64,000 bases of DNA, from the NCBI GenBank assembly GCA_008632985.1, contig QPGO01000065.1:1-64000 (forward strand), written 5' to 3'. Positions 1-60,639 of the stretch are shown piece after piece. Below the pieces are notes generated by a model. It searched no databases. It was not told where the DNA came from and worked only from the letters and a program-made list of their open reading frames with translations. This DNA is from Psammoneis japonica. Taxonomy: Eukaryota. Numbering within the stretch: the first letter of the stretch is position 1; each line of letters begins with the position of its first letter. The position numbers and the translations under genes were made by a program.

Positions 1-10
1 CATGAACGCG

Positions 11-7343: not shown

Positions 7344-7400
7344 CTGTACACAAAATGTTGGAACTGTTTCTACGCTCGTGCAAAAATGTCGCTCTACAGA

Positions 7401-7473: not shown

Positions 7474-7549
7474 GCTCGTGCGTGGAGGAAAGTGAGCTGC
7501 GAGGTCTGAGGTCCAGACAAAAAGTTTAGCGGCCGCAATGCGCAATCGA

Positions 7550-33299: not shown

Positions 33300-36050
33300 A
33301 AGGCAGACCAAGCACAAAACCCTGGACCTCCATTTTCTCCTGCAAGACTTTCTCTCTCAAGCCAAATTACATTCTTGCCACACATGCAACTCCACCCAAC
33401 ATCTGCATGTTTGTGACCCAGCAACCTGTGCAACCATGTCACCCACCACAACCCCCCCTCACTGACACCAACTCCACCCTCATGGCCACACACACCTGCC
33501 TCACGGCACTGCCTGGCCCACCACACCACAACAGCTCAACACTCTTGAGCTTGCTTCCCCGCCATTTTGCACTTCCATGTGCCGCAAGCTGTCTCCCTCC
33601 ATGCGCCACAAAGTCTTTGTTGCCCCACACCACATCCTGACTTGGATCATTGAGTCCACCAAGAAGCCCTCACACACCTCAACCCCAACAACCCAGCTCC
33701 ACCCCATGAGTGCACATCTCTGCACCTTTCTGAAAACTGCTGCTTCTCTTTGAAGCAATTGCCCTTGCTCCACCTTGCTGCTCCCCAACTGCAAACCCCA
33801 ATCGCTGCCCATCAGCTGCCTCTGTTGCACCCACGCACCTTGAACTCTTTCAACAAGGGTGCATCTGCAAACCACATGACACCGCATGTGCCAACCCCCC
33901 CCCCCCCACACACACACACACTGCTCCCAACACCTGCTGTCACACAGCTCAAGTGTCCGTTGATGCCGATGACTTTGGTGCCACTTGCCATCGCGTCACT
34001 TCCAGCCTCCTGATTGCCACCATCAATGACACCCGCCTTCAGCTCATCCACAATCTGCACCCACCCCACATCCCACACCCACTGCAGGCATCTGCCACCA
34101 ACACACGGCACCCCACGCCCCCTCCATCCCCAACACACTTCACCGATGATTGCCTTTTTGCCGCCCTCAGCAAATGCAAGCCTGGCGCTGCTGCTGGCCC
34201 ATGCGCTGACTCCACCAACCTCCTCAAAGGCTGCACCCTCTACAAAACAAGTGCTCCCACTCAGCAGCAACTCTGCCTGCACCTTGTCACCTTCAAGGGG
34301 TTCATGATGATTCTCCAAACCAACTCCGTTCCCTCCAACATCTAACCCCTCACCACTGCTGACTGCTTTGCAGCACTGCGTGAAGACCCCACCAACCTCG
34401 ACAAGCTGCAACCCATCAGTTGCTGCGCTGCAGTTTGTCGCATAACCAGTGCCCGCACTGTGACCATCAATGCACCCGCTCTCACAGAACACCTCCTCCC
34501 AGACAGCCAATTTGGAGTGGGCATTGAGGATGGATCTCTGCGTGCTGCGGTCTGTTTTTTGGGAGCTCGTAATTTTTGTAAAAATGACCCGGATTCTTCA
34601 TGCTAAATGCACGAGCTTGCCAAAAACAATGTTTTGGCAACAGGCTGAACTTTGTCTGCTTCAAAAACACCACAAAATGCACAAACAATGGCTGTGAGCA
34701 TGCGTGACTTTTACCCCATCAACAGCAGATGTGTCCACAGTCAGTCAAATGCCGCCACTTGTCGGATTTTCCCAGAAAGTTGTGGCCAACATCTCACAAG
34801 AAGCCTGATTTTTGCAACAATTGGTGTTTTTTTTTTTTTGAACCTGGCAATGGGAATCTTTCGAAAATGACCCGTGACGCAAAAGCACAACACAATTGTG
34901 GACGCCTGCAGAGTCTGCATGTTTTTGCACTGAAGCTGTCATGCTCACACAATTTGTGCAAAAACAGACTTGACTGTTGTCGCATTGGGTCAGGTGCATT
35001 TTTGCAAATGCATTGAAGAAAAATGCACCTGATCAGAAAACAGTCAAGTCCATTTTTTGCGAAGTTAAAATTCACCAAGGACAGACAGACAGACTTTTCA
35101 ATGATTGTCTTGGCACTGTTCCACACATTTCTACGCAAATGACTCTACAGCACAAAAGATTGCTGTTGCAACAGGACACAGGCCAACAAGTGGCATTTGA
35201 AGCTTTGAATTTGCAGCTCTCATGCTAGTGCAACAGCCCTGAGAAGGGCTTGACGAGTGCACAAGTGCTTGGGGGCATCTCCAAGGCAGGTCAAAATGAC
35301 ATGATGAAGTGTGGGAAATGCGAGCTGTTTTAAATTAGACTGCAGCACATAGATCCATCCTTGAAGATGGCCTTGATTGCCTCACACATGCCACCCATGC
35401 CAATGTTGAATGTTGCCCCAACACCACCACACCGACCCACGCCTTTCTCGCCCTTGACCCACTCAACTTTTTCAACAAAGGCTCTCGTGCAACACCTGTC
35501 AGGAACTCCTTGACAGCACACCCACCTTCAGACACCTCATCCCCATCTTCAACCTCTGCCACAACATGCCAAACACATGCTGGTGCCGCAATCCAGATGG
35601 CAACTGGCAATCCTCCCCACAGCCAGAAGAGGTTTTTCTCAATGATGCCCACTTGTTCCCCCGCTCTCCGCTCTCATTTTGAGCACGGCACTCAAACAGC
35701 TCAACGCTGAACTTTGCCAACACTTCCCATCCTCTGACATTGCGTCAGCTGCTTCCCTCATCAATGACACCAACATGTTTGGCTCCCACAAACCGAGCTG
35801 CCGTGGTTCCCACAACGCCTCAACAAACCAGGCCCCCCCAACATGGAGTCCACCTCAACCGCTCCAAGAAACACATGCTTGCCTCCATCTCTGGCACCAG
35901 CCCTTTATCCAGCCTGCCCCCAACAAGTGCTGATGCCCTTTGCAAAGCCCTGTTTTTCCTTGACCCTGCCAACAATCCTGCCCTCCACCCCAAAATCACC
36001 ACTGCCCCCCGCTTCCTTGGCCAACCCATCAGCAGCCCTGCAGCATGTGA
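33300..36050 (+). mobile_element. CRE-like non-LTR retrotransposon reverse-transcriptase region, pseudogenised and interrupted by the 34528..35360 insertion
   Basis: KPGAAAGPCAD, LTALREDPTNLDKLQPIS, EHLLPDSQFGVGI|EDGLD, AFLALDPLNFFN (RT D..NAFN motif). Boundaries approximate. Confidence 0.7.
34528..35360. mobile_element. Non-autonomous TIR DNA transposon (833 bp), TTGA target duplication, possibly Kolobok-like
   Basis: Ends ggatggatct..ctgcgtgctgcggtctg and tagactgcagcacatagatccatcc are inverted repeats. ttga flanks both sides (34524..34527, 35361..35364). Removing it restores QFGVGIEDGLD in the host LINE. Confidence 0.75.
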
Positions 36051-36845
36051 CTGTCACGTGCATGTTCATGATCATGTGTTATTTGTGTGTCAATCGCACC
36101 ACAGTCGTGGATGCGCACAAAGGACAGAACGATCACACAGAGTTGATCGGATGTCGAGAATTGCAAACACGATCGATTGACGATGTTGACATCTTGCGTG
36201 TCAATGGCAATCACATCCAGACAATCTGTTGTCACGAATGCATTCTCCGAAAGGCCTTTTGTCTGCAGAAGCAGTGCAGAAGCTTCAGGCCATTGAGAAC
36301 TCGTTCGGAGAAACCAAAAATCACAGAGTGAAATTCAATCTCATAAATTTCCACTTTTCGCACACTGTTCTACTTTCGGGATTGTTGGATCACACCCTTG
36401 ACGAGCTGATTGAGGTTTGAGTCATCTGGAGGTCGGTGAGGACGTCCATGACAAAAAAACATGTCAAATCAGGCTCTGACAGTGCTGTTGATTCCAAAAT
36501 CAAAAAGGTTCCAAATTTGGTTCCCAAAATGGTCTCCTGTGTGGCACCTGAACAATCCAAAGTGAGTGCAAGGTCCAATCTTTGAAAAAAGAACACCTGC
36601 ATCACGGATTGAAGCCATTCTGAAAATGAGCCAGCAAAAGAGTGCAAGGGTGACTCTGAAAGAGACCCAAAAATGCGCAGTTCAAATGGCAATTGCACGC
36701 GGTCGCGTCGCGATGACGAAAATGCCGCTCGCAAAAAAAGAGATGAACGTCATGATTGATCAGGCGGTTCAAAAAACACTCAAAGCAAGTTCCTCGAACA
36801 AAGAAAAAGAGCACAAGGGCAAAGAATCAGATTCTGATGCCCTCA

Positions 36846-38176: not shown

Positions 38177-38761
38177 TCAGTGAAGAAAAATGCCAATTTG
38201 ATCGGATGATCCAGACTGAATCCGAAGAACAATTTGGGTCTGTTCATGAATTGTTTGCTCTGCTGGATGTCAGGAAGCCTAGAAAAAAGGCAGAAACAAT
38301 TCATGCCAGTCCAGGAGTCATCATTTGTGTGAACACTTCCTTGGGAAAGGAGAGAAAAAAGCATCTGCGTGTTCCTGTCAACAACGGAACATCGTCAACC
38401 ACAATTTTGCGCAAATTCGTGCGAAAGTTGAGAACACAAGAATCCGCCACCAAAAACTTGGGAAACCAAGGGTGAGCTCTTTACGACTGACAGCAAACAC
38501 CGAATTCAGTTCTCACTGTGCGAATTTAAGATGCACTGATGTTCAAACAGCATGTGTTGAAAACACCAAATCTTCTTCAGGTTCAAATGATGTGATCATG
38601 GGACGCGACTTAATGTCCAGTCTTGGAGTCACATTGGACCGCGCAAATGAAGAAATCAAATGGGAAGAAGCAACTGCCCTGTGAAGAATGTTCGTGCACT
38701 CTTCGATGCCGATGTTTTCAAGCTGAAAACCGATCACATTGAAAAATGTGATGCCGTGAAT

Positions 38762-40340
38762 GGAGTTGACAATGGAACCAATGGTCCTCGACTCACATCA
38801 TCACGCCATCAATCCCAATCAAGTGACAACTGTGGCGATGCATCCAACCCAAATGAACACAACCAACTCAATCTTCTTCTCAAGAGGTTGAAATCTTTTT
38901 GAAAAGTTCCTCAGACGAATGCGTGGGAAGAACCAGTGGATCTCATTGTGGAAAATCTGACGCGATTCCACGACGCGTGAGAACCTTCTCCTGTCACAGT
39001 CTTTGGAGGCGTCCAATCAAAAGGAATTTGACCTGTTGTGAAAGATTGAAGTCTCAAAAATGACGTTGCTCTGAATCAGTCGCTCTGAGACTCATTGTCC
39101 AAAGAAAAAAGGTTGAGTTTGACCGCATCCGATGCTCAGAAGCTTGGTGAAAGGTTCACACACGTGGTGTGTCCTTTGCCCAATGTTCAGGAAATGCTGT
39201 TGAAGCAAGAACGTTTCATGTGTGCAATCTGTTTGATTCAAACATGGAATGCCACCATGTCAAATAAAAAAGGCACACGTCGTGCTCACACGAAAATCAT
39301 GCCGTGGGGAAAAAATGAGTGCTGCAGACTTCCAACGAGAAGCCACAGAGCCCCAGACATTTTTGCACAACACATGAGCGAAGTCATGGCAGGTTTGAAG
39401 TTGTCAGAACGACTGCAAATGATTGTTTGTGCCTGACAAAAAGTGACTTCAAAATGTCACCTGTGCAAGTGACAGCTTGGCACGGCATTCAAACGACTGG
39501 AACAGTCGCTCAGAAGGTCAACAACAAAAGTCCTTCACTGTTTGACTTGAAACAAACTGTCAACACTTCCATGCGGAGTTGACAATGGAACCAATGGTCC
39601 TCGACTCACATCATCACGCCATCGATCCCAATCAAGTGACAACTGCGGCGATGCACCCAACCCAAATGAACACAACCAACTCAATCTTCTTCTCAAGAGG
39701 TTGAAATCTTTTTGAAAAGTTCCTCAGACGAATGCGTGGGAAGAACCAGTGGATCTCATTGTGGAAAATCTGACGCGATTCCACGACGCGTGAGAACCTT
39801 CTCCTGTCACAGTCTTTGGAGGCGTCCAATCAAAAGGAGTTTGACCCATTGTGAAACATTGAAGTCTTAAATGTGAAATTGCTCTGAACAAGTCGCTCTG
39901 AGACTCATTGTCCAAAGAAAACAGGTCGAGTTCGACCGTGTCCGACACTCAGAAGCTCAGTAAAAGGTTCACACACGCGGTGCATCCTTCACCCAACATT
40001 CAGGAAATGCCGTTGAAGCAAGAACGTTTCGCACATGCAATCCATTCGATTCAAACATGGAGCGCCACCATGCAGGGAGAAAATGAGTGCTGTGGACTTC
40101 CAATGAGAATCTACAGAGCCCCAGATGTTTTTAAACAACACATGAGTGAACTCATGACAGGTTTGAAGTTGTCAGAACGACTGCACATGATCGTTTGCAC
40201 CTGACAAAAGGTGACTTCAAAATGTCACCTGTACAAGTGACAGCTTAATGCGGCATTCAAACGACTAGAACAGTCGCTTAGAAGGTTAACAACAAAATTC
40301 CTTCACTGTTTAACTTGAAATAAACTATCAACACTTCCAC
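38762..40340 (+). repeat. Tandem duplication of about 0.8 kb inside the Gypsy pol (copy 1 38762..39574, copy 2 39575..about 40340)
   Basis: Both copies start ggagttgacaatggaaccaatggtcctcgactcac and stay colinear to tcaacacttcca. Copy 2 lacks about 45 bp. Confidence 0.92.
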
Positions 40341-42520
40341 ACGTAACGATGTGCAATCGATTGCAAAGAAAATGGAGGCGATTCAAGCAATCGCAACACG
40401 AGAAAAACGTAAAGAACACTACGACATCTCGTTCTCATACGTTACTACTGTCGAGACATGTAGTCTCAACGATATCCTGTACAACACTAGCCAAATTCAC
40501 CTCGATAAGGGTCAAACGGCAAAAGTACAAGTACGGAACGAAAAGTCTCCGAAAATATGGAGCGTATCAAATCAAAAACTATAATGTTATCATACACGTA
40601 TTTCAATATTATACGTTACAACGGAAAAAAGAACTTCTGTCCATAGTGAAAACACTAAAAAAATTCCGAAATATACTGTTTGGCCAACACATTTATATAT
40701 ATACGGATCATAAGACACAACGGACAAAGTCATACGTTGACGACTTACAATAGAAAGCTTCAGTCCCGAATTAAAATACAGCGAGGGCAAGGCGAACATC
40801 GTCGCGATAGACGCGATCAGCCGACTTACTATAGAAAATTGAATCCTACGACAATGTTCTACCGTTAAAACGGGATAAAGACATTTCCCTCCAAATTGTC
40901 GGACGCGACATATCATACGAACACTTTTCGTGGAGGCGAGCGAGATCGAAAAATGCTCATATCATAAGGATAAAATCGCCTTTTTAAAGGACGATTTAGG
41001 AAAAAACAGTGACAGATTGGTGTACATTATACGTGTCCACTTCACACTATCCACTTCACACTGGCAAAAGACAAGCTTGGTGGAATGGCCAATGGGCTTC
41101 CCATCAAGGGCACCGGCACTGTCTCTGGGTGCTTCCAGGCAGCAGACGGCAGCAACATCAATGTCCAGACTCACTGCCAGTGTGCACCTTGTGCCAACGT
41201 GCATCTCCTGTCCCCCAATGTCTCTTTCAACCTGCGGGCATTCAAGGCCACTTTTGGGGCAACAGTGAGAGGTTTTTTTGAGCTTTGTTTCTGCAGAACA
41301 CCCAAGATCCACGTCACATGCAACAAATGCACAAACTCGCCGGTTGGCTCCGCATCTTGTGGGGCCATGTGTGTGCTCCTCAAGTCAATTTGAGCACTGT
41401 TGCTGACCCTGATGACCTCAATCTATCCTCCGGGCAGAAGTTGCTTGTGGACATCCATGCTTGGTTTGGGCACCTTAATTTTCCATGTGTCCAAGCTCTT
41501 CTCTGCCGGCCTCCTTTCACTGCTCTCAAGTTCACATCTGCTTCCAAGTGTGACATCCCTGAGTGCAACACCTGCAAGCATGCCAAGGCTCGCCGCTGTC
41601 CCACCAAGGCCCAACAGAAAACTGCTGTCCCTGAACACAATGGCACACTCAAAGCTGGTCATCTGCATCCAGGTCAGTCTGTGAGCGTCGATCACTTCAA
41701 GTCGCGTCTCAAGGGTTGCACCTGCAATTCCTGTGGTGAACCCTCCTCTCAGCAGCATGTTGGCAGCTGCATTTTTGTTGATCATGCTTCTGGGCTCATG
41801 CACACTGAGCATCAAGTTGGGCTCTCTGCAGTTGAGATGACATGGGCAAAACAAGGTCACAAGCAGATGGCTCTCAGTCATGGTGTCATCGTGCAGGAGT
41901 GTCTTGCCGACAAATTAGCCTTCAAGGGCAACAAGTTTGTTGCTCACATCCATGAATCTCAGCAATGCATCCACTGTTGTGGAACAAATGCCCATCACCA
42001 GAATGGCGTTGCTGAGAGGTCCGTTCATTCTGTGTCAAATGTGGCATGAGTCATGATCCTCCATGCCTCCATCCATTGGTGCAGTGGCATCGACAGCTCT
42101 TTGTGGCCTGTGGCAGTCAACTGCGCCACCCATGTCTGCAACAACACTCCGGGATCAAATGGGCTTTGTCCTGCCAATGTTTTCACCAGATCCACCATCC
42201 CACACCACCGTTTGCTTGGTTTGCACACTTGGGGCTGTCCTGTCCATGTCCTGGATCCCAAGTTGCAACAAGGTGAGAAATTTCCGCATTGGCAACCAAG
42301 ATCATGGTGTGGTTTTTTTCTCGGCCTCAGTTTGGTTCACGCTGGCAAGGTTCCACTGGCCTTGAACTTGAATGCCAGGTCCATTGCTCCTCAGCATCAT
42401 GTGGCATTTGACAATCTCTTTGCCACAGTTGCATTGATCAAGAGGGAGAACGAGCCACCTGATCACTGGGAAGAGCTCTGTTTGGAGAATGTCATCCAGA
42501 TGCCACTGGATTTGAGTGAC

Positions 42521-42820
42521 TGACAGAAAGTGAGGAAAATGGGGGCACTCGCCTGGAGGTGTCTTGGGTGATCAAATCCGTCCACAAACAGGAGAGCACA
42601 GGCTAAAACTGGGAATGTCTTGCACTGAAGTGTGTTCTAGACATTGTGAGAGATTCTGAGTTACTCTCAGAATCGGAGCCATGATGAAAGAAGGGTGGAT
42701 TCCGACAGGTTGTGGAAACTCCAAGGAATCACGGATGATTTCCATCACAAACTATCGTGAAGATGCAATGTCTTCAATCATGAGGTTCCGATGTCAAAAG
42801 GGAATGTGGAATCCCTGACA
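42521..42820 (-). repeat. 3' LTR of the nested Copia
   Basis: Colinear with 50212..50511 without indels; adjacent to the PPT. Confidence 0.95.
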
Positions 42821-45800
42821 CCCCCCTTGAACCGAATGAGGGAAGACATGGAAACGACTCATGAAAGCATGTGAGAAGGAAGGTGCCAAAGAGCACGATC
42901 GACCATGGGCCAAATTTTCTCGGCACTCTGAGTTTTGGTGGTGCAGTCGGCAAGTTGACTTTCTGCAGGAACCCAGGAAAGGAGGTGATGACCGAGTCGT
43001 TGGCCTTCGCGGACACATTGGAAACGTCGTTCGATGTGCCTGGTGCGGCGAGTCTGCTGGTCATTTTGGGCCATTTGGACAGCGGCTTGATTGTCCAGCA
43101 CAATTGTGGTGGGGGTTGTGGACAGATGCTGAGTGTCAATGGAGCAGTGGCGGGTGCCAAGGTGGGTGAAGTCGCAGGCCAGCATGCATGGGTGGGCCAC
43201 AGCCATCGCGCCAGTGCAGGCACCCATCCATTCGGATTCAGCGGTGGACATCACAATGGGGGTGGGGACAGTTGAATTGGCTTCCACTGTTGCCCCATTG
43301 AAGAAAGCCAGAAATCCCACAGTGGACTTCGCGGTGTCAGGACAATCCTGCCAGCTGGCATCGGAGAACACGACAAACACAGAATGATTGACGTTGTGTG
43401 CCTCACAGATGGCGTGGACGGGGCTCGCGGTGGGATCAGAATAAAATTTGATGGCGAGGTCTTGATGTTTCCGGAGATGACCAAAGAGGTGGACGAGAGC
43501 GTCGAAGTCTTTCATGCCAGGGTTGGCACAGGCCTTGGCGAGTTTGCAGGTGATCCATAAAATGTCGGCTTGGGTGTTGCATGCAAGATGCAGGATGGAG
43601 CAGACGGCGGATCGAAAATGGAGATCTGGATGTTTTGCGGAGATTGCCTTGGATTCAGCTTCATCCTTGGGGCGATTCGACTTGGAGTGGACACAGTCGA
43701 CGGGAGCTGGTGTGTCTTGAAAGCTGGGGCTGCCCCAGGGCGAGTCCGGTGTGAGGAAACGCTTGAGGAGATTGCAAACGTGCCGATGTTGGTCGAGAGA
43801 AAAAGAGCCGTCCTCGCATCGGTGGGTGCGCATCTGGAGGAACCATGTGACGTCGCCGGTGAAGGTGATGTTGTACTTGGAGGTGATGAGGTTCTCGAAA
43901 TCCTTTTCAACGCGATTGTGTGAGCCAAAATGGATCACATCGTTGGTGTAGAAATCAACTTGAGGCAGGAACCATCAGAAAAGTGCTTGGCGAAGAAGGT
44001 GGGATCGGCCTTGGAGTTGGTGTGTCCCTGGGCAATCAAAAATTCAGAGAGCTCAGTGGACCACCAGAGGCCACTGCGGATGGTGCCATGCATGCCTTTC
44101 TTGAGATGGAGCGAGATGCCAAAATATTCGGCACATTCCGGGAAATGTTGCTTGAGGATGGGATCGAATCAGACGAAGAGGCGGCCGCGAGCAGGAGCTT
44201 GGAGGTGGGCTCCGACGAAATCGCCATTTTTAACGCGTCGTTTGGCTTGAGCAGCAAAAGCAAGGAAGAGTTTGATGGCGCGGGAGGAGGCGTTCGGCGA
44301 CCAATTGTCGTCATCGTCGTTGCAGCGTTGCATGTCGCCGCATGCGCAGCAGCGAGCCTTGAGTTTCTTGAGAGAACCGTCGGGCTTCTGCTTGGCACGG
44401 AGAGCGAGGGTTGCACCAACAATTTTGTCATCGGGACAAGGACATTCGTGAAGAGCGCAGGTCTCGTTGTCGACAATGAGGTTTTTAAGCTCAGAGCCAA
44501 CAGCACGGAGCCAGGCGTCGCGGATGGCCGGAGGTTGTCTGAGGACAGCTTGGAAAGAACGAGGAACGGGCAAGCAATCGTCAATGGGGGTTGTTGCTGA
44601 GGCTTGAAGGATCTCAAGAGCCTGTTGCAAGGGGTCGGGACACTGGTGCCAGTTGTGATTGATCCAGGGAGAGGCAACGGCGGCGCTGAACGCTTGCTCC
44701 ATGCCGAGAGAGTCGTCGAAGAGAGTTTGCTCGAGGGTGTCGAGCGGGGAGACGGTGGTGGACACACACAAGTGTTTGTCGTCAGCAAAACGGACGGAAG
44801 TGAGTTTTCCGGCATTGGATCGGGAGGAGCGACGCAAGGTTGGAGCGGTGTTCGTGAGAGGAGCGGAGGTGTCCAATTGAGAATCATCGACAGAGGAGGA
44901 GTCCGAATCAGATGCAGATGGAGGGTCAACATCGAGGAAATCCTTGATGGTCCCAGCATGCTCATCTGCAGGTGTGTCGTCGTGATGAGTGAGGCCAGAA
45001 GAATCGTTGGGCATGTTGCGAATCGGGAGAGCGCCAGAGAACGGAACATGGTCATGCACCAGGGACGATTCGAAGAGTTCGTCGAAAATGGCGTCATGCG
45101 CAACAATCAGATTTTTGGGACCGATTCCTTTGGGAACATGAGTGAGGTAGCCAGCCTGGTTGGGAGCAAAACCAACGTGAATGCCACGAGAGCGTCGTTG
45201 GAGTTGTTGTTTTGCAGTGGTCGGGTGGCCGGTTTCCGGATTGAGAGGTTGGCACCTGTCGAAAGCAACGGGACAACCAAAGACACGGAAGTGGCCAATT
45301 TTCGGATGCTTGTTGAAAGCATGAAAATGAGGGGTAGTGAGTGAGCCATCCGGTGGTCAGGTGCCCTTGGCTGGAAGCACATTGAGCATCGCAACTGCGT
45401 GGAGGAAGGCGTGATGACAAAAGTGGGCCGAGAGGTGCGCGTTCACGAGGAGGCAGCAAATGATGTTGGACACAACTTGCCACATGCGTTCACTGATGCC
45501 ATTCATTTCTTGGTGACGAGGAGCGGCGATCTCAACCTTGATGCCATTGTCGGTGCCAAAAGAAATGAATTCGTGAGACAGAAAACATTGCGCAGAGTCG
45601 GCGCGGATGAAATTGGCGTCTTGCACGTGGCCAGTGGCCTGGACTTCTGCCATCCAGGATTTGAAGGCTGCAATGATGTTGCTGGTGGTGGGGCTCGTAA
45701 GACCACGCATGCCACAAAGGTGTCCTTTGTGCGCAGCCATGAAAAGATGGCACGGAAAAGAGGAATTTGGGGTGAGAGCAACATTGTGTGGGTTGGGAAT

Positions 45801-48800
45801 TGTGTCCACAAACACACGTGAAAAAGTGTGGTCCGGTTCAGTTGGGTCACACTTGATGCGGTTTCGTTTGCGAGATGTGGCAATGCGCGCATTGTCCAAG
45901 TGCGCGTCACTCCCGGGGGCAACATGACAGTCGTGCCAAACTTCGCCAATTGTGCCAGCCAAAAGACTTTGAGAGGCCGACATCCGAATCGGCGACCAGC
46001 AAGGTCAAGGTCGATGGCGGAGGTCGTGGGGTGGGAGGAGGACGGTGCAGAGTCTGCTGCATTGTCAGGAGGGTCGCTCGCGTTGGAGGAGCGAGGTGCA
46101 GTGGACGCATCGTGACAAGAGCGTTGGTGACGAAGGATCGGGAAGCTGAAAGTGTGGCCATCGCCAAAATCGAGCTTTGTGATGTTCGTCGTGATGTGCA
46201 CATTGAACAATTCGTTGTTGGCGAAGGCAGGGACCGAGAACAAATTCCGGTTGAGACCGGGGATGTGGTGCACATGGTCAAGGACGAGGTTGACGGGGTG
46301 TCCTTGATCATCCTGAAAATGCAAGGTGACAGAGCCAACCTTCGTAGCGTGGACTGTGGTGCCATCAGCAATCACAACGGGGACATGACAATCAACGGGA
46401 TCGTCGAGTGAGTCATGACGGACGAAGTGAGAGGATGCCCCAGAATCAACAAACCAACTGCGAATGTCGGTGAGGTCATGGTCACGAGGAAGTTGCTGAG
46501 GACGACACTGGGTGCGATCGTCGGCCATGAAGGCGACATGATCAGGAGTGTCTGCAACTTGGGCGGAAATGTGAAGCGCAGCAGTCTCAGGAAGGTCAAC
46601 GCTGAGTTCAGAAATGACAGAGGAGTCATCATCATCTGAAACGGTCGACGGCAGTTCCGTGAGAGGGGCCAGAGTGTGCGCGTCGGAAAAATCCAGGGGC
46701 AAAGTTGTGGCCGGTGTTGCCAGACGAGACGGCAATCCACTCGAGTGAGAGGGAGAGCGTTGCGTTGGCGGTGGGAGTGGGCCTGCAAGAAAGGGCATGA
46801 CAGATGATGAGTCAGTGCTGGAATCACATGAGTGATGGGCCAGAGGTGGTGGACCGGCCGAGGACGAGTCAGAGGACGTGTCGGAGTCGGGTGACACATC
46901 GGAGAAAGAGTCGCCGTCGCATGAGCCGGAGCGACTTCGCCGTGGACAGAGGGGTGGCATTGATTCATGAGAACAGACCGAGGAGCAACAATCATCCACG
47001 GGGTGGAGACTGGTGGCGGGGCAAGTGGTCGGCGTAGCATGGAAGAAAGAATCGAAGGACGAGTTGTCGTCAGTCGAGTCAAAGGCCGAGTTGAGATCAC
47101 CGGGATGGAGACAGAGAGATGGCACAGAGGCGTGAGAGGACAGAGAAGCGCAACAATCAATCTTGGGGGTGATGCCGGTGGCACAAAAAAGATTTGCGTG
47201 TCATCGGGTTTGGCAGCATTGAGACAGGTCAGCGGTGCAGGATTGGCGCGAGTGGCGGCAAGAGCGGTTTGCTTGGAAGCCGACTTGAGTTCTGGGCACT
47301 GCGGACAAAGATGTCCCTTCTTTTTGCAATGGCAGCAAGTGACCTCACTCAAGTCACGAGCAGCCTTGGGAGGAGAGTCCGCTTTGGAGTCGGGTGGCTT
47401 GGATCCATTTTTTAAGTCGCGAAGGCGTGAACGGCACTCGGCGGCGTTGTGGTTGAGCTCACCACAGCATCCACAAATCTCGTTCGTGCACTGGTGGCGT
47501 TGGCGTGGAGGCTGTCGCTGTCCATTGCGATGACTCTGCCGGGTGGTGGCAAGATGTGCATGATTGGACGGCGGTCGCAGGCGATTGCCACCGGAGGCGC
47601 GGTCGCGGTGCTGTGCGTTGTGATGTTGTTCGTCGATGCTGTAGAAAGTCTGGCGGATTTCTTTAAAAAGAAGAGCATCGGCAGATGAGAGACGAGAGGC
47701 AGTGCAAAATTCGGATTCGAATTGTTTGATGGCAGCATCACAGCGGGGGTGACTGCCCATTTGACTGAGAAAATGGGTGCTCTTCTCGGCGTCAGTTTTG
47801 ACAGGCAAGCCCGCATTTTTGTAGTTCCGAAATTTGCGTTCAAAACGTTCAATGAAACTGCTGGCTGACTCATCAGAATTGTGAAAAATCTGAAGGCAGT
47901 CGTTGGCACAGCAGTTCATGTGTTCCTGGGAGAGAGGGGCGCAACGTTGTTGCAGTTCCTCGAGCGCGAGTTTGCCGGAGTTTGAGCCGAGATCGGAGAT
48001 GTCCGACTTGTGCGCATCGTCCACATGCGTCCAGAGCAAGGCAAAAAGGGCCTTGTCAGTGGCAGCAGGAAGGGGACGAAGAGGTGCGGAAGGAAAATCC
48101 GTGACACAGTCAGTGAGCTCGGGAAAAGAGGCAAGAGAGCCGCGCAGCTCGTTCAGGAAAGAGTTGAATTTTTGACTGCGCGTGCATGGATTCTGATTGT
48201 GTTTCAGAATGCCAAGTTTCGTGTGGGACGCATGCTTCATGAGTGAATTAGCCAGTGATTCTGAGGAGCGCTCCGTTGCATCCGTGGTGCAATTGAGTGG
48301 CTCAGAAATGAAAGTGGCATCATGGTCCGAAGAAATGTCGTGGCGAGACGCGCGATCGGGCGGCGGACTGAGGGCAAATTGGAATGACAAGTCCAAATAG
48401 AGAGCCTCAGCTTGTCGCATCACATGCTGGAAACAGTCGAGGGCAAGTGTTGTGGATTCACAAGCCGGGTGGCGACGAAGAAGGGATTCGAACGACGATT
48501 TTGCAGAGTCAATCGTGAAACGAAGATCGGCCTCATTTTCGGATGCGCGAGAGAAGAACGGTTGTAGTTCCTGTTGAACACGAGCGAGGGCCTCAGTGGT
48601 GACGAGACGAATCAAAGAACTGTCCACAGTGGTGTCGACCGGGTCAGAGGTCGTGGGCTCCGGAGGAGAAGAGGCAGTCGCGACATCGGGCGCAAAGAGG
48701 TCCTCGTGGTCCGTGGGAGTTGGTGTGGCGAGAGCATCATCAAGAGTGCCATCCACATCCTGTAGAATGGGCGTGATGAGTGTCTCGAGGCGAGTGACAG

Positions 48801-50211
48801 GTGTGTCGTTGGTGTGATCGACATTGGAGAGTGCGGGAGTGGCAGATTCCGGGTTGGTCGACAGTGGCGGGAAAGATTCAGGAGCATCAAGAGGAGCCGG
48901 CGCTGGTGCAGTTGATGCCTGCGAATGAGACGGAGAAGGTGATGGCGGGGGAATGTTGTGGGTCCCCCCTTCAAGTGAGGCAGTCTCATCGATGGGAGAG
49001 ACGGTTTCAACGGCAACGAAAATGGTTTCGGGTGCCAAGGGTTCCTGAGAGCGGCGTCCGGATGAACGGCATGTTGTGGTTTGCTTTGTGAAGCAGCGAT
49101 CAAGGTCAGGATGCTCAAAAGGTTCACGTCGGGACATGCCAGTGCGACGGCGGTAGCGGCGCAAAGTGTGATGTTCCTGATTCGGCGTCAGTTTCTGGGG
49201 TTTCTTCTTGCGAGAAGAGGAGCGAAAATTGCCGGTGCGTGGGTTGGAAAAGTGAGATGATTTTGCAGGCGCGGCATGCGCAGAAGGTTTCTGGGTGCGG
49301 TTGTGCAAAGTGTCCAAATCGACATCCAAAATGTCCATCAAGTCATTGATGTCCATGAGAAGGTCATCATTTTCGTCATTGGTGAGGACGCAAAATTCAG
49401 TCGGATTACGAACGAACGATGGTGTCGATGCGGTGTTCATGCTGAGCATGAGAGTGCTTGAGGACACGAAAATTGGAGTTGATCTTGTCAGTCTCCGAAT
49501 TGAGACGGTCGACGCGGGATTGAATTTTCGCAAGATGATCCTGGAGGGCACAACGGACGTCTGCTTTGACTTGGTGGCGGCGGAGTTCCTCGGGCGATGG
49601 CGGTGCAGGAGCAGGAGTGCACTTGGAGGAGGCAATGGCGCATTGAACAGCACGTTTGGCATGACGACCAGCAGAGCGATTGTGCTTGCGGAGAGGTTTG
49701 GAGGGTCCAGAAGATGTCGTGGGCAAAGAAAGGGTTTTGCCGTTGCGGAGGCCACGAACGGGAGAGCAAACACGATGCTCAAAATCCGTGTTGGTCTCGG
49801 AGGCAGCAAGTGTGCGGCAGATGGCACAGTTAGAGCGACGAGTGGAGACTTTGTTGCGCCTGGGGACTTGCTGGGAAGAGTGGGCAGGCGGCTTAGAGCG
49901 AGGCAGAGGAGTGCGCTTGACGCGACGGGTCGGAGTGTGGCGTGCGCCCTGGGTCACGCAACTGGAACGACGACGACATGTGGAGTGCAAGCCAGCATGC
50001 TGGACCACAGAGCCAGCATCAACATGATGACAAAGGTCACGAGGGTGGGCCGTGGGGAGTTCATCAACAGAAAGTCCGCGGGCCGCGAGGGAATCGTGCA
50101 AGTTGGGAGCGTGCGATGACGCCTTGCGACGAGAAGAGGCATGAGACGCATGACGAGCGTTCGACGCAAAAGAAGTGGTCTCCTTGGACCAAACCGGAAG
50201 AATTGCAACCA

Positions 50212-50511
50212 TGACAGAAAGTGAGGAAAATGGGGGCACTCGCCTGGAGGTGTCTCGGGTGATCAAATCCGTCCACAAACAGGAGAGCGCAGGCTAAAAC
50301 CAGGAACATCTTGCACCAAAGTGTGTTCCAGATGTTGTGAGAGACTCTGAGTTACTCTCAGAATCGGAGCTATGATGAAAGAAGGACAGATTCCGACAGG
50401 TTGTGGAAACTCCAAGGAGTCACGGATGATTTCCATCACAAACTGTCGTGAAGATACAATGTCTTCGATCATGAGGTTCCGATGTCAAAAGGGAACATGG
50501 AATCCCTGACA
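50212..50511 (-). repeat. 5' LTR of the nested Copia
   Basis: Colinear with 42521..42820; followed on the minus strand by tggttgcaattc (PBS-like). Confidence 0.95.
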
Positions 50512-52739
50512 GTGACAGACAATTGTTTCTTCAAGACGATTGGCTTGCTCCTGCAGAACTGGAGCAGAAATGGCAACATGAAGAACATGTGCATCTTTTC
50601 AGGAACACACGTCAACAACAGCCTGCTGCAACAAAATCTTTGAAGCCTGTTGCTCTGGTCATCAACCCACCACCATCTGCGTGTCCCAATGCATCCATGC
50701 CATCGAATTCCGCAAAACCCCAATCCGTCAATGAGCAAATTGGAAGTTGGTCATTCAATGCCTCCCGCATGTCCGCCACCTCCTTCAGGTGCAGAGTCAT
50801 TGGACATCTCAGTCCCGGCTCAAGATGTCCCAGCACCACCCACAACTGAGCAGAACATGCATTGCTCACAAAGATCAAACAAAGGCAGGGGAGCTGCAAC
50901 TCCTTTTGCCAACAAAGCCCATTTAGCCTCAGCTGAGCCATCGGATGCTGGAGGATGCCATTCCCAGCTTGCTCATCTTGCTGAGATCCAAGCCTGCTGT
51001 GACAGTGGAGAGCTGGACATTCAAGACCCTTGTGTCTGCACTGCCAAGGCCAAGAAGAATGATGACATGCCAAATGTGCAAGAAGCTCTCATGGGCGAGT
51101 TTGCCAAGCAATGTGTTGAGGCCATGAAGACCAAAGTGGCCGTGCTCGTTCATCGCAAAACATGGAAATTTGCAAAGCGCGATTCTTCTGTGAATGTGTT
51201 GAAATCAACATGGGCTTTCAAGTGCACTCCACTGAAATTCAAGGCTTGATTTTGTTGTTGTGGCAACTTGCAGCAAGAAGGAGTCAATCACTTCAAGACC
51301 TGTGCTCCAGCAGTCCAGTGGTTGACTGTTCATCCATTGTTGAGCGCTGCATTGCAAGAAGGGTGGGCAACTCATCAAGTTGACTACACCAATGCATTTG
51401 CACAAGCTGATGTCACCAAAGACATTTGCATCAAACCTCCCAAGTGTTTTGGCCCTGCCTCAGGTGCCAACATTGTTTTTGAGCCACTCAAGATGCTCTG
51501 TGGGTTGAAACAAGCCCCAAAATGCCTCTGCAAAAAGCTCCGCAAAGGATTGATTGAACAAGGGTGGGTTCAGCTGGTGGCAGACCCTTGTCCATTTTTC
51601 AAGGATGGCATGATTTGTGTTGCACACGTTGGCAATGCTGTCCTCACTAAAATGGAGGCCTTCTGGAACGTGAAGTCACAGCTCCAGGAATCCAAAAGGA
51701 AGAACAATGCCACATTTTCAAGTTCCCACTGACTCAACCGGGTCTAACTGATGAGGTCCTCAAAGCTGCTGGTGTGGAAGATTGTCATCCTTCTCTCACA
51801 CCATGCACTGCTTCTCCATGCCATGCTGACTCAGAGGATCAATTGTTGGGATGCTCACGTGTTTATCGGCAAACTCTTGTCCCAACATCACATGCACTGC
51901 CCATCAAGCCGCTTGCTTCTCCTGCACTCCCAACAGTCCCATGCTGTTGCAGTGAAGTGTGCTCTTCATTGTCTTCAAGGTGCAAAGGACAAGGGCCTCT
52001 GCCTGCGCCCTGGTGACAACCAACAAGTTGGTTGTTTTGTGGGTGCCGATTTTGCTGGACTCTGTGGTCATGAAAACTCCCAAGACCCAGTGAGTGTCAA
52101 GTCTTGTGCAGGACACGTCATTTTGCACTGTGGCTGTTCCATTTTGTGGGTCTCCAAGCTGCAGATGCAGATTGCTCTCTCCACTGTGGAAGCAGAACAT
52201 CTGGCACTGTTGGCTGGCATGTGCAGCCTGACTCCGATCCAAGAGATTTTGAAAGAAATTCAGCATCACGCATTCGGGGGCACAAGAATGCTTCTGCTCC
52301 TGCTGCTGCCAAGTCAAAAGCCTTTTCTGATGTGAAAGACGGCACGATTCCTTCCTCCAATGTCTGCAAGGACAACCAGGCATTTTGCGCACCAAACACA
52401 TTGGCGTTCCCTGTCACTGGTTCTGCACTAAAGTTGAGCTGCTCGAGATCATCATTGAGCCTGTGGGAACTGACTCTCAGCTTGCAGATCAGTTTGCAAA
52501 GGGGTCAGTCCAAGCTCTGTTTGAATCTGGTTGGAAGGGTCTGTCTGGCTGGTGGCTCTGCAGTTGAGAGGGAGAGTCAAAATGTCAAAGTCATTTTGTC
52601 AATGCCGCTTCAGACATTTCCATGTGTCACTTGCGTCATCAAGATTCAAATCTCATCTCTCCTCACAAATCTGGTCGTTGAGACCTCTCCACAGTTTGTC
52701 ATCATAATTTCTCCATGGAGAACATTGACAACGACTTGT

Positions 52740-53880
52740 GCTGCTCCATTGCAACCTTGAGCTCTTGCTCATTCTGACACAAGCCACTTCATCACATCTT
52801 CAGCTCCGATCATCAGACGGATGCCGGAACATGCCTTGTGAGGTGAGCACTCGAGGGCAAGTTTTGTGACATTTTCTGTTGTTGTGCTTGAAAAATCAAT
52901 GGTTTTCATCGTCTTCATTGTCAGGGTGAAGCTTTCTCATCCATTCTTTCAGAAAGAATGCAAATCAGAAGTGAAGCGAGGCACAGACGACGAGAGTTTT
53001 GTTGCGCAAGTCAAACGTCTGAGGAGCCGCTCCCCGCCAGCAGTTGGCATCACTTTTTGAGATGCACCAGCTCAAGAGCCCTCTGGATGACTGGCTTAGA
53101 TGTGCAGTTCATTGATGACAGATCTCCAAGAGGTGCCACATGACTTAGAGACTTTCGTCTGCTGCCTTGGTCGGACCAGCCCGGTCCATCATGACCTCCA
53201 GCCCAACAGCTTCCGGCATCTCAAGTGCTTGCTGAGCTTTGCTTTTCATTGCAACCACCCACAATCATTGCAATTGAGAACGCGTGGCAAGGCACTGTTG
53301 ATTTGACCACAACAACAAATCTCCTTGCAGTCCGAGAAGATTTGGTTGTCAAGTTGGGCGGCGGCTGGCAAGCCACTTCCAGGCGGATCTGTGTTTGTTC
53401 TGCTCATGTGGAACCACCCAAAAATGGCAGACACCCCATCCTGTTGTCTGCCATGTGCATGCGAGTGAACAGACATGATTGCATCCAATGCACTCTGACT
53501 TGAACCTCAGAAATGGCGTTGCCGGCCGATGCACCTGCGGCAGAAATTTTGATGAAGAGCAAAAAAAGCGTCAGCAAAAGTGTGACATTTGACAGTTTGA
53601 GTGGCAATCACCCAGCAATGTCCTTCCCACAGGAACGATCAATGCATTCCATGTGTGCTTGCCTCTCAAATTAAAACATTGACGAAGTCGCAACCGAACA
53701 ATCACCCTTGGATGCGGCATGTTCTTGCCACACAAAAGCACGAAGCACGGCGGTGCTTGCCCAACAAGCACGAACATCCGGAGGTAACTCCATCCACACA
53801 ACCACTTCGATTGAATCGTTCAATGAATGTGTGTAACCTTTGTGTACTTCGGTCATAGAGGCATTCGCAACCTTCGATTG
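52740..53880. mobile_element. Unassigned TpA-depleted repeat remnant
   Basis: Same compositional signature. TA reappears gradually from about 53670. No recognisable domain. Confidence 0.4.
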
Positions 53881-55363
53881 GGATGGAGGCAACAACAGCA
53901 AAAATGCATGAGAAGCATTGGATGGAGAAAAAAAGCATCAAACGGAAAAAAAATCGATCGGTAATCGCTGTGCCAGATGCTTCCAATGGGGTTTAAAAAG
54001 ACTCTTCCGATGCGATTACCACTCGATTATCAACATCAACGCCGCCGTAAACGATTTGCTCACCATGGTCGAAGTCTTTCTTTCTCGTGCAAAAAGCAAG
54101 CACGAGGATTGTGGGGTGGCGGACGAACGTGCAAAGAATAATTTTAGTCGAATTATTCAGCTATAACGAATTCTTTTTTGTACCAAAGATGTACGTACCT
54201 TTCTACACTGATATAATGTATAAGAGTATTGTCATTATAATAAGAAATCCTTCTAGATCTTTTTGAATATTTTTCTAGTGAATGTAGATGTCATTGACGA
54301 CGAGACATGACACCGAGATATAGCGGACCAACTTGAAACTCAACACAATGACGAGAACATTGAAATAGAAACAGCTCCGCTCGCAATCTTCACGTTGTAC
54401 AACCAACACAATGAACTCGAACCAAGAGCCCTTCAACGAAGCAAACCCCGATCGCGCTGGTGCCGGTGGTGATGGTGAGCAGCCTCCGCCGCAGGTGAAC
54501 AATCAATCTGCGTCATCGGCCGACGTTATTGCCTTGCTAAACGCTATGGTGCATTTAGTCAACAACGCCATCCTTTTGGAGCATGGGTGAGTGATTTCTA
54601 GTGCTTGATTCTGTGCTCTTATATGTTGTGTGTGCATCTGACGGTTTTATGTTTTATCGTTTTCGCGCTGTGTTGTTCTTTCCGAGTTATAGTTTTGCTC
54701 CTCAAGGTGTCACGGGCGTGCCACCCGGTGTGCCAGCGTTGTCGGAAAGATCGGCGTCATCGGACAAAGCTCTTGAGTTGACAAGTAAGATGTGGGATAC
54801 CGTCAACAACTCCGTGAATGCCTTCAACAACACCGTCCGTTGTGTCTACGGGTAAGTGACTTGACTTGTTACTTTGCTGTTATTTTCTGTCGATGTCTCT
54901 GACTGTTCCATCCTTTTTGCGCTGCACAGATTTGCTCCTCAAGACATCGAAGACGACGACCGCGAAGACGATGACCGCGAAGACGAAAACGACGACATCG
55001 AAGACGACGATGGCGAAGGCGACGACGTCGTCGACGACGGCAATGCGGATGCGGCTGGGGACCACGACGCTCTCTGACTTTCTCAAAAACAGGAAGTGGT
55101 GAGACAATGCCATCAGAAACAGCATGATGGTGCAATGGCATTAGCAGCAGCAGCAACAAGAGTGCCAGATTATACCGCCACGCAATGACGAGGAATCAAC
55201 CAAGACCACGGTATTGTTATTTTTGCACTGGCTACAATATCGTAGAATAAGAAAAAAATAGACCTAGAGGTTTTGTGAAATGATCATTATGCAGCTCACT
55301 TACAGTAGTTACGAATAAAGAGTGAAATGCGAAAGCTATCCACAAGTGCTCTACTCTTTAAAA

Positions 55364-57930: not shown

Positions 57931-60639
57931 ACAATCAATCGTTGTCTGGCTGCGTAGTCTTGGGGCGTACGCGACGTTTTAAACAACCCGCCTTGTTTTT
58001 GTCATGAGCTACGGCTGCATTGAATACGTCGAGAATAGAATCATCTAACACCCCAAAGTCTCCTGCAATTCGAGAGCATCTTTTGACGAAAGAGCTGCCC
58101 GGAGATGTTGCTTCAATAGTTCAAGCAATTCTTGCAATTTTTGCTCTAGGGCCCTAGAGAGAGACTTGCCTCACGTGTGCTGTCAAATCGAGTTGAAGGC
58201 ACCGGAATTGGGTCCTGAAAGGGATTGACTTTATGCGTTGCCACTTCCCAACGATGGTGCTGAAGAGACTGGGTAAAAACTCGAAAACCGGCATCATCAA
58301 AAATGCGGTAAGCAAATGTCCCGGAAATGCTCTTTTTCTTAAAACCATGCACTGTCCTGGAGCGGAGTCGAAGCAAACTGATCAAGTCGCTCATTTGTTC
58401 ACACCTTCAAAAGACAGTGCCGTTCCATTGGCATCAAATGGTTCTCATCTTGTCGCCACTACTTCCTTCCGATCCACGATACGAGATTTACTACCAACTC
58501 GTAGATAGACCTCGTTGTGAGGCACAATCTACAAGCCTCCTTCGATTACCTTGGTTGTCCTAAAGTGGTCATTGTTATGAAGGTAATGGTGATTGTACTC
58601 TCGCAGTTTCGTCGGTAATGCCAGAGCCCCCGTCTCCCATTTATCAACTTGCCACGCAATACTGTGTACGCAGTAGATCCCCATAACAACAACACTTTTG
58701 CGCCTGTTTCTACAATGCATAGAGGGTGACACTGCAGAGGGTCAGACGAGTGCCAAGCATGCAGCAACAATTCCACGACGTCCATTTTCCCTTCAAATTG
58801 CAGTGGTGAACAACGAGCTACGATAGAAGGCAGGCATGGCATGTACCGTACAAAAGAGCACAGGCTATTGATCTTCCAACTTCCAATTTGCTCAACGTGT
58901 TTCCTACTTGTTTGCGTGGTATTCTTTTCGTCATTGCGTTACATTCGTCGTGATTGCGCTTCATCGTTTCGTCCCCTGATGTCATCAAAGAAACATTCCT
59001 TTTCGTTTCGTGTCCCATTGTGGATGATTCTTCTTCTGCGGATATCGGATATCCAGAAGTATAGTTGCGCGTAGTTCGGAGAAGTCCGAGTCGTGTCATC
59101 CCATTTTGGGGGAGTATCACCAAATGTTTCAACTGGAAGGTAAAAGGTGATGGTACCGATATGTCGGTATGTAATCTAAGGTACTGTAACTGGAACAAGC
59201 GCGACATCGAGTTGCGAAAAAAGAAGTCGATATTCGGAAACAACCTGAGCAAAGCTCGACTTACCATAGATCATTGACAGTGTTACTATTGGCAGCCGTC
59301 GCAACGCCAGCCAAACACCTAATGCAAACAATCATGACCATCAAAATGAGGTTTACGGTCAAGTCAATGAGTTTGTCGAGGTTTGAGAACTTTGATAGCG
59401 TTTCAAAACACTTCCACACCAGCTCAGTATCCGTCCCCAGAAAGAACGCCAAACCAATACCCATTCAGTATTTCTCAGTATAGCTCCTCGCAACAAAACA
59501 TTCTAAGCGTTGATCGGAATTGAGAATGTCAACGCCTGGCAATTGGCAATTGACGCTTGGGCCCTCAGGACGGACGGGACGCAAAGTGATTTTATCGTTA
59601 TCGGCGTTGACTGAGCGGGTCCGATGCCAACATAATGTTTGGGAACACCCTCGTCCTCTCGAGCAAGTTCGCGAGCAACGATGACGTTCAACCTTTCTTT
59701 TGTTCCTGTCGAAGGCGCGACCGAACTCATCGTGATCATTATGGATGATCTGGATGAAAGAAGGAGACGATGACGACATGGTAATTGTGGACGGTTGCAA
59801 AAATCAGAGAACCATAGAATACACCACTCGCACCGCACTGCATGCTGGAAAACACTGAACGGGTGTAAGCTACAGGGACGCCATGGCGGTGAATAATGAT
59901 GCTTTATGCTTCATGCTTTTTTTTTTTTTTTTCCTGACAGTTTGGCAAAAGGTCCCTGACGGCAGCAAGACGGATCTCATTTAGGTACGTACGTACGTAG
60001 GTCGTCGGTTCGGCAAAGACTTCATGATCGTGGCTGAATAACGATAAGCCCATAACCCAAACTCGACATTTGACTTCGAGTCAAAGTAAGCTAAATGAAT
60101 AGTGTAAAACGTTAAGTGTCATTTCCACTTCGACACAGAGACAGCTATATGATTAGTGCAAATCGTTAAGTGTCATTTACACTTCGACACAAAGAAGCTA
60201 AATGCTTAACGGCAGTGGTCAGATTTCAAATTCTGAGCAATACAGAAATGTCAATGATGAATAAGGATTTTAGATCCCTTCTGCCCTTAATGTCATTATT
60301 CCAATGCCACTAATGAATACACAAATGAATTTGTATTCCATCCTTTTCGTAAACTTTGATCTATCGGCATTTTCAATACGAGTACGCGATGACAACAATA
60401 AAGCATGCTTGTATGTGTCATGGTCATAAGCTGTAAGGCATACCGTCACATTTGGATTGAACTCGGGATGTTGGTGTCGAAAGTAGCCATTTGTTTGACA
60501 TTCGTGATTTTTCATCGCCCACAAATTGGGATTTCAACTGAGTCGAGTTGATGTTGGACGTGTGCAAAGCACTGCGTTTGATGAAACAATTGAGGGCTCT
60601 GAGCTTATGGCATTTTATGCCATGGAGACTTAAAATGGT

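Follow-up and report, generated by a model that had tools for sequence, protein, structure and literature searches.

A degenerate Copia element and its long terminal repeats

The stretch of DNA examined here, referred to below as the window, is 64,000 nucleotides long and contains at positions 42521..50511 a degenerate Ty1/Copia retrotransposon that lies on the minus strand and is nested in an older Copia on the plus strand. This inner Copia is bounded by two long terminal repeats (LTRs), and the way in which these repeats differ from each other, together with the scarcity of the dinucleotide TpA in the element and in other blocks of the window, is the subject of this study. Its assignment to Ty1/Copia is based on the direct LTRs with TG..CA ends, the 5-bp duplication of the target site, the polypurine tract, and the position of the integrase before the reverse transcriptase; on the minus strand, the recognizable domains follow each other in the order Pol_BBD, SH3_retrovirus, and RVT_2. 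The parts of the element are as follows, with observed/expected ratios given as o/e.

42516..42520, no strand: target-site duplication GTGAC, left copy (from the sequence; the same five bases stand at 50512-50516)
42521..42820, minus: 3' LTR in element orientation, 300 nucleotides, TG at its start and CA at its end (from the alignment)
42821..42828, minus: polypurine tract AAGGGGGG (minus strand), which abuts the 3' LTR (found by eye; supports the minus-strand orientation)
42821..50211, minus: internal region, degenerate and with frameshifts (24 TpA in 7391 bases, TpA o/e 0.06; CG o/e 0.98)
42862..43974, minus: frame with a weak RVT_2 end and the downstream part of pol (RVT_2 E=0.082; tblastn of the database polyprotein P0002, E=1.5e-9)
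44172..45356, minus: frame in which SH3_retrovirus (the integrase end) precedes the beginning of RVT_2 (E=1.3e-5 and 5.6e-6, neither of which reaches its curated cut-off)
45506..47200, minus: frame with Pol_BBD, the Pol polyprotein beta-barrel domain (Pfam E=1e-12, 48.6 bits)
46375..49953, minus: open frame encoding 1193 residues, only 4 of them Tyr, with two zinc knuckles of the gag type CX2CX4HX4C (no Pfam match)
50212..50511, minus: 5' LTR in element orientation, 300 nucleotides (from the alignment)
50512..50516, no strand: target-site duplication GTGAC, right copy (from the sequence)

The reading frame of the inner Copia is interrupted at several places, and the catalytic YxDD motif, which was looked for in its frames, was not found. 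The frame at 44172..45356 has 943 relatives at E≤0.001. With a length of 7991 bases the element is unusually long for a Copia, and about 850 residues upstream of the zinc knuckles in the minus-strand frame 46375-49953 are without a Pfam match. Its GC content is raised to 0.55.

In a computed, ungapped alignment of 42521-42820 with 50212-50511 (300 nucleotides each), the two LTRs differ at 22 positions, all 22 differences are transitions, and there are no insertions or deletions, which reproduces what a preliminary description of this DNA had reported. The classes of sites were also counted exactly as given there, namely six adjacent TG/CA doubles (12 bases), four sites with TA in one LTR and TG or CA in the other, three with CG against TG or CA, and three others. 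Recoded as purines and pyrimidines, the two LTRs are 100% identical. The ratio of transitions to transversions, 22:0, departs from the 120:83 found in four segmental-duplication pairs of the window (Fisher p=2.9e-5). Furthermore, pyrimidine-purine (YpR) steps, which make up 128 of the 300 LTR positions, hold 19 of the 22 differences (binomial p=3e-5), and seven pairs of differences are adjacent where 1.5 are expected (p=3e-4, 100,000 random placements). This pattern is beyond chance. The differences extend from LTR position 45 to position 286 and run in both directions. Two of the three that fall outside YpR steps, at LTR positions 134 and 208 (window 42654 and 42728), both read GAATC against GAGTC, that is, one change read on opposite strands. 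Four TpA are present in the LTR at 42521-42820, and 32 remain across 42521-50511.

TpA-purged blocks and the direction of change

Along the window, TpA content is bimodal and switches from one state to the other within one or two 500-base steps. Three unique gene-bearing stretches (1-5684, 12001-25500, and 54001-60400; 25.6 kb) contain 39-43 TpA per kb, with a TpA o/e of 0.59-0.60 and a CG o/e of 0.95-1.04. Five purged blocks contain 2.7-8.3 TpA per kb (TpA o/e 0.05-0.11), and in all of them TG and CA have o/e values of 1.3-1.9. One of these, 41041-53900, covers both Copias, and purging there stops near 53900, at the start of a duplicated segment that carries genes. The purging is local to mobile or unrecognizable DNA, and the gene-bearing DNA is ordinary. 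Because TpA is nearly absent from all purged blocks, TA is being lost there and not gained. In addition to the inner Copia and a gypsy-like element described further below, the purged sequence comprises the following parts.

7501..11790, no strand: purged block of unknown origin (TpA o/e 0.09, CG o/e 0.66)
25901..36400, no strand: purged block of unknown origin (TpA o/e 0.07, CG o/e 0.30)
41041..42520, plus: 5' part of the outer, older Copia, interrupted by the inner insertion and containing integrase and SH3_retrovirus (TpA o/e 0.05, CG o/e 0.29)
50517..53900, plus: 3' part of the outer Copia, with RVT_2 and the sequence downstream of it (over 50512-53900, TpA o/e 0.06, CG o/e 0.40)
60501..64000, no strand: purged block of unknown origin that extends past the end of the window (TpA o/e 0.10, CG o/e 0.38)

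The extent of CpG depletion differs from block to block: CG o/e is 0.29-0.40 in the outer Copia, 25901-36400, and 60501-64000, 0.66 at 7501-11790, and 0.98 in the inner Copia. Nor are the repeats of the window uniformly purged, as an element at 36831-38191 and the RT_RNaseH part of the gypsy-like element at 40340-41040 keep their TpA. For the three blocks of unknown origin, a Pfam search of all open frames of at least 90 residues gave no match, and none of the 154 fetched proteins, all used as tblastn queries, hit them with an E below 0.01. The second of these blocks contains two short tandem repeats (26518-26984 and 31488-31742, with periods of about 173 and about 125) that are masked by transitions and visible only in purine/pyrimidine coding. 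A self-comparison of the window in this coding, aimed at copies hidden by transitions, revealed none beyond the known pairs and these two small tandem repeats.

The direction of the change can be read from the proteins. Tyrosine is encoded only by TAY codons, and therefore the fate of conserved tyrosines polarizes the change without recourse to other genomic copies. For the inner Copia we used columns with at least 60% agreement among at least four aligned homologues, drawn from 127 of the 154 proteins after the 27 with less than 2% Tyr had been dropped. At 15 conserved Tyr columns the element has His 9 times, Cys once, Tyr twice, and Phe, Trp, and Leu once each, and at 29 conserved Arg columns it has CGN 20 times, AGG twice, His twice, Cys once, Lys twice, and Asn twice. 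The losses in coding sequence amount to 10 of 12 informative codons for TA (0.83) and 3 of 23 for CpG (0.13). The outer Copia was compared with P0002, a database polyprotein of 1407 residues that aligns with about 50% identity to 41213-42511 and then to 50833-52552. Opposite the 30 Tyr of P0002 the outer Copia has His 10, Cys 10, Tyr 1, Phe 3, Trp 2, and four others; opposite its 62 Arg it has Cys 17, His 10, Trp 4, stop 2, Gln 2, and Arg 11; and the catalytic YVDD reads HVGN. By these alignments, the inner Copia has lost TA and kept CpG, whereas the outer Copia has lost both.

The LTR pair was examined with two models of ancestry. A TA-ancestor model, which includes the unseen class of an identical change in both LTRs, fits the counts (TA in both, 2; TA against TG/CA, 4; reciprocal TG/CA, 6) with a loss of 0.76 per LTR (G=1.9, p=0.16). 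A CG-ancestor model with a uniform rate (CG in both, 7; CG against TG/CA, 3; reciprocal TG/CA, 6) does not fit (G=10.6, p=0.001). Under TA ancestry, the LTR losses of 0.76 for TA and 0.15 for CpG agree with the 0.83 and 0.13 of the coding region; CG ancestry would imply an LTR CpG loss of 0.55, which would contradict it. With TA ancestry at these sites taken from the model fit, 16 of the 22 LTR events fall at TpA, three at CpG, and three elsewhere. That the changes lie at TA-derived sites, as had been suggested, is thus supported, indirectly, by the loss of Tyr from the coding region, the retention of CpG, and the fit of the LTR model. From the two loss fractions, the per-site rate of TpA loss is calculated to be about ten times that of CpG decay in this element.

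These data also bear on a different reading of the reciprocal sites, in which methylated CpG decayed to TG in one LTR and to CA in the other and TA was gained by a process like fungal repeat-induced point mutation (RIP). CpG decay is certainly real in this DNA: the outer Copia has a CG o/e of 0.29-0.40 and 35 of 62 Arg replaced by Cys, His, Trp, Gln, or a stop, three LTR sites are CG against TG or CA, and the window and run X1 differ at CpG inside the inner element. However, the inner Copia keeps its CpG (o/e 0.98; CGN at 20 of 29 Arg columns), and its TA is nearly absent (o/e 0.06) instead of gained. Moreover, the replacement of conserved Tyr by His or Cys is unobtainable by any C-to-T process, and the combination of seven CpG intact in both LTRs with three single and six putative double losses rejects uniform decay (p=0.001). 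This reading is largely refuted, and we give it very little weight.

Two further searches concern the relatives of the element. A metagenome scan with a pol fragment gave 95 pattern matches and no confirmed relatives. The idea that the low-Tyr relatives in the database are purged as well was rejected, as in the reverse transcriptase segment the 31 low-Tyr rows mostly have Phe or Trp, not His or Cys, at two conserved Tyr columns.

Timing, strand bias, and mechanism

The target-site duplication is intact, and therefore both LTRs derive from one insertion. One round of reverse transcription cannot yield differences spread over LTR positions 45-286. This intact duplication and the spread of the differences support the earlier proposal that the changes arose after integration, in chromosomal DNA and on both strands. 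A second case is provided by a gypsy-like element upstream of the Copias.

38401..40339, plus: purged part of a gypsy-like multi-copy element, with a tandem duplication 38762-39571 / 39575-40339 (TpA o/e 0.11)
40340..41040, plus: unpurged island, the RT_RNaseH part of the gypsy-like element (57 TpA in 701 bases, TpA o/e 0.94; CG o/e 1.82)

The two copies of the tandem duplication differ by 62 transitions and 10 transversions, including 14 TG/CA doubles and 12 sites of TA against TG or CA, and in purine/pyrimidine coding 98% of their positions agree. Although no reverse transcription separates these copies, they show the same signature as the LTRs. The segmental duplication of the window, which served as a control, has an ordinary spectrum with no TG/CA doubles in 203 mismatches. 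Over their first 264 columns the tandem copies are nearly identical and free of TA; in the later columns, TA is present only in copy 2 at 12 sites and only in copy 1 at none, and the TA retained in copy 2 becomes denser toward its 3' end, where it runs into the unpurged island. The notion that the purge is bounded by the tandem duplication was rejected, as copy 2 keeps increasing amounts of TA in the 3' direction and the border is inside it. Therefore, the process acts in tracts whose borders ignore the limits of repeats and elements. The island itself stands between two purged tracts, with a border gradient from about 40110.

Runs of changes coherent in strand were also looked for. In tandem copy 1, a hand count gave 10 TG and 4 CA in 6 runs where 6.7 are expected, and in the LTRs the split was 5:1 (binomial p of about 0.2, by hand); neither is significant.

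On this evidence we consider it likely that a TpA-purging process acted on the inner Copia after integration and that it changed TpA to TpG or CpA. The host would subject the inserted Copia, like nearby mobile DNA, to a local hypermutation in which the actual change would be A-to-G on one strand or the other, with each LTR struck independently. The six reciprocal TG/CA sites would then be ancestral TA lost in both LTRs on opposite strands, the four sites with TA against TG or CA would have lost it in one LTR, and the three sites with CG against TG or CA would reflect ordinary, much slower CpG decay. We infer the same direction of TA loss for the 22 LTR sites. Our confidence in the underlying chemistry, presumably the deamination of adenine in DNA at 5'-TpA, is much lower than that in the process. 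Adenine deamination on either strand is the simplest reading, and it has also been proposed for the matching case in Bigelowiella natans. The purging may serve as a defense against mobile DNA.

The chemistry could be different. Thymine at TpA may be enzymatically modified in silenced mobile DNA, for example to 5-hydroxymethyluracil (5hmU) or a derivative, and mispair with G, which would give T-to-C on either strand. In dinoflagellate DNA, 5hmU prefers TpA. As TpA is self-complementary, T-to-C and A-to-G are indistinguishable from the sequence, and enzymatic 5hmU that silences transposable elements is on record in dinoflagellates according to a published account (PMC11572971). However, nothing in these data points to modified bases, to a dinoflagellate host, or to such an enzyme, and the preprint that describes a matching spectrum in B. 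natans names an ADAT2-like deaminase as its favored candidate (Mettrop et al., bioRxiv 10.64898/2026.01.13.699255, version of 14 Apr 2026). We regard thymine modification as rather unlikely.

The two Copias differ with respect to strand. In the sense strand of the inner Copia, T-to-C far exceeds A-to-G, and from 42.5 to 50 kb the plus strand has more TG than CA throughout. The plus strand of its internal region is rich in G (G 0.35, C 0.20), and the sense strand is therefore rich in C. In the outer Copia there is no strand bias (His 10, Cys 10). The bias of the inner element could mean that the template strand was the preferred target or that part of the change took place before integration; it leaves room for an added component that is either pre-integration or linked to transcription. 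An asymmetry that is the mirror image of this one is present at 33001-34500 and 35501-36000, within a block without recognizable genes, where the G-C skew in 500-base steps is about -0.35 to -0.47 and CA exceeds TG.

The same bias is the main argument for an explanation in which TpA was depleted before integration, by ADAR-like editing of RNA or by editing of cDNA, and the LTRs came to differ later through gene conversion or recombination with differently edited copies. Editing of a one-strand intermediate would be expected to leave the bias seen in the inner Copia (His 9, Cys 1; TG above CA on the plus strand), and possible donors for conversion exist in the form of other contigs at least 80% alike that cover the pol part. 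However, the target duplication is intact, the LTR differences are spread over positions 45-286 in both directions, the outer Copia is unbiased, and the tandem pair at 38762-40339 shows the same differences without reverse transcription between its copies. In addition, the purged blocks end in gradients that ignore element borders, and the process described in the preprint acts on resident chromosomal DNA (bioRxiv 10.64898/2026.01.13.699255). Depletion before integration is, in our judgment, improbable as the full explanation.

A comparison with contigs from run X1 adds to this picture; runs X2 and X3 added next to nothing to it. The X1 contigs tile 43441-50241 and 50466-51515 with, in all, 14 other letters and one gap. 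The differences considered here come from the 40 of 2141 rows that were listed, and one of them (50458) lies in an LTR, outside the 22 sites.

43253, 43257, 44756, 45436, 47072, 49828, 49960, 50458, no strand: differences between run X1 and the window (among the 40 of 2141 rows listed)

Four of these eight differences lie in codons covered by homologues, and two of the four are informative, both with CG as the ancestral state. At one of them the window has GTG and the run GCG, and the residue is Ala in 15 of 16 homologues; at the other the codons are CAC and CGC, with Arg in 27 of 38. Therefore, CpG decay is also ongoing in the element.

Several points speak against the proposed post-integration loss of TpA, or at least limit it. 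A symmetric process does not predict the strand bias of the inner Copia, in which Tyr became His nine times and Cys once, and part of the TpA depletion could predate the insertion. Every one of the eight full-share X1 differences listed for the element pairs CG in the run with TG or CA in the window, and there is no TpA change between window and X1 among the listed differences, with only 32 TpA remaining. As inferred here, the ancestral state at the 22 LTR sites depends on the model fit and the coding region and is thus probable instead of directly read, and six of the 22 differences are at sites not derived from TA (three CpG, three other). Finally, a CG-ancestor model with two classes of CpG, one very fast and one slow, may be compatible with the LTR fit.

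The purged sequence could also be imagined as an artefact of assembly or sequencing, for example of mixed strand-converted reads, and the window is indeed a draft sequence with a gap of 510 N. However, the purged sequence is reproduced by the X1 contigs (from a run possibly not independent of the assembly), the signal is restricted to blocks, and in comparisons with homologous proteins it appears as Tyr replaced by His or Cys. An artefact is scarcely credible.

A more far-reaching version of the post-integration process can be put forward tentatively. The host may possess a counterpart of RIP that is adenine-based, independent of duplication, and directed at integrated retrotransposons, that works in tracts with sharp or graded borders ignoring element limits and about ten times faster than CpG decay, and that in the present element struck mainly the adenines of the template (antisense) strand. 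If true, the template-strand preference would point to a deaminase that acts on adenine in DNA and is directed there by transcription or by RNA:DNA hybrids.

Other features of the window may be noted briefly. One X1 contig links 42489 to 50523 through 37 other letters and represents a relative of the outer Copia without the insert. At 38301-41300, the summed depth of X1 contigs is 4,900-12,900 and as many as 30 of them overlap at a single place, whereas the contigs tiling the inner Copia have a depth of about 57; this places the gypsy-like element in a multi-copy family. Several X1 contigs are without its tandem duplication. The element at 36831-38191 is 1.36 kb long, has terminal inverted repeats of 62 nucleotides (87% complementary), and is unpurged (TpA o/e 0.70); in two X1 contigs 36841-38174, nearly the whole element, is absent and 36840 is joined to 38175. 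The segmental duplication 11793-21429 / 53903-59008, with 83-97.5% identity and indels, includes an RPE65-type carotenoid oxygenase gene, and each of its copies begins exactly at the end of a purged block. A search of the window with Rfam gave no match.

Consequences and comparison with known systems

Outside YpR steps, change in the LTRs has been far slower, with 3 of 172 positions different (1.7%) against 22 of 300 overall (7.3%). Naive dating from LTR divergence therefore overestimates the age of the element about fourfold, and the earlier expectation of such an overestimate is borne out. In a genome of this kind, YpR steps must be masked if LTR dating is to avoid an error of fourfold or more. 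Purged elements also escape domain searches, because Tyr is turned into His or Cys and, with CpG decay, Arg is lost. Three of the five blocks match nothing, and the content of repeats and foreign DNA would therefore be underestimated. The LTR pair, on the other hand, is a natural before-and-after experiment. Applied genome-wide, LTR pairs would give the rate, context, strand bias, and tract structure of the process without mutation-accumulation lines and would show whether retrotransposons are its main target. If true, a natural enzyme for A-to-G change at TpA in double-stranded chromosomal DNA would be new to biology and of interest for base editing.

Fungal RIP resembles the present case: it is a hypermutation that makes only transitions, is specific to certain dinucleotides, acts on mobile or repeated DNA in the chromosome, ruins coding sequence, and inflates apparent age. 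RIP needs duplicated sequence, and the purged intervals 46701-47300 and 48501-49100 are covered only by the X1 tiling contig (the contig filter drops some contigs). Similarly, the border in the tandem pair lies inside copy 2 and not at the end of the repeat. As described in the RIPCAL paper, RIP changes C to T, mostly at CpA, and raises TpA (PMC2621366). In contrast, TpA is removed here, GC goes up (0.55), and Tyr becomes His or Cys.

In vertebrates, endogenous retroviruses and LTR retrotransposons have been reported to be edited by APOBEC enzymes (Knisbacher and Levanon, PMC4866542). There, as here, deaminase-type hypermutation footprints are fixed in genomic LTR elements. However, APOBEC enzymes act on cytosine in the pre-integration cDNA, so that G-to-A appears on one strand and the LTRs are alike, whereas the changes seen here are A-to-G and T-to-C, fall on both strands, and leave the LTRs different at 22 sites. 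A-to-I editing of the ADAR type, which works on double-stranded RNA derived from repeats, shares with the present process the change from A to G and, as stated in the Discussion of the B. natans preprint (bioRxiv 10.64898/2026.01.13.699255), favors an A that follows U (T). In contrast, ADAR acts on RNA and cannot account for differences between the two LTRs of a single insertion or between the units of a tandem repeat in the chromosome.

In a literature search, the signature of TpA loss was matched only by the preprint on B. natans; the other matches were to fungal RIP, which runs in the opposite direction. According to the main text of that preprint, 231 of 302 de novo mutations in a mutation-accumulation experiment fell in two integrated viral regions, and 230 of these 231 were A-to-G or T-to-C, all 230 at TpA (bioRxiv 10.64898/2026.01.13.699255). 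It also reports 124 TpA-depleted clusters genome-wide, an enrichment of reverse-transcriptase and DDE-endonuclease domains among TpA-depleted genes, and an ADAT2-like candidate enzyme (bioRxiv 10.64898/2026.01.13.699255). The giant-virus and virophage DNA of B. natans, as presented there, agrees with the present locus in that the changes are nearly only A-to-G and T-to-C, probably likewise at TpA, and are local to foreign DNA in an otherwise ordinary genome, in the long-term depletion of TpA with gain of CpA and TpG, and in the independence from copy number.

There are also differences. The hypermutable regions of B. natans, by the figures of the preprint, keep TpA at 3.3% and 9.2% of dinucleotides, whereas the blocks described here are near saturation at 0.3-0.8%. 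The evidence presented here is historical, consisting of an LTR pair and protein polarization, whereas that for B. natans consists of de novo mutations, which were seen episodically in cultured lines. The strand bias, the unpurged islands inside elements, and the roughly tenfold rate relative to CpG decay are seen here and unreported in the main text for B. natans, and the words LTR, retrotransposon, Copia, and CpG receive no mention in that main text. If the host is B. natans, the process is already known and the locus adds retrotransposons, saturation, strand bias, and the consequence for dating; if it is not, the system is wider than the single reported species. The locus is best classed as a further case of the very recently described TpA-directed hypermutation of foreign DNA, here affecting LTR retrotransposons.

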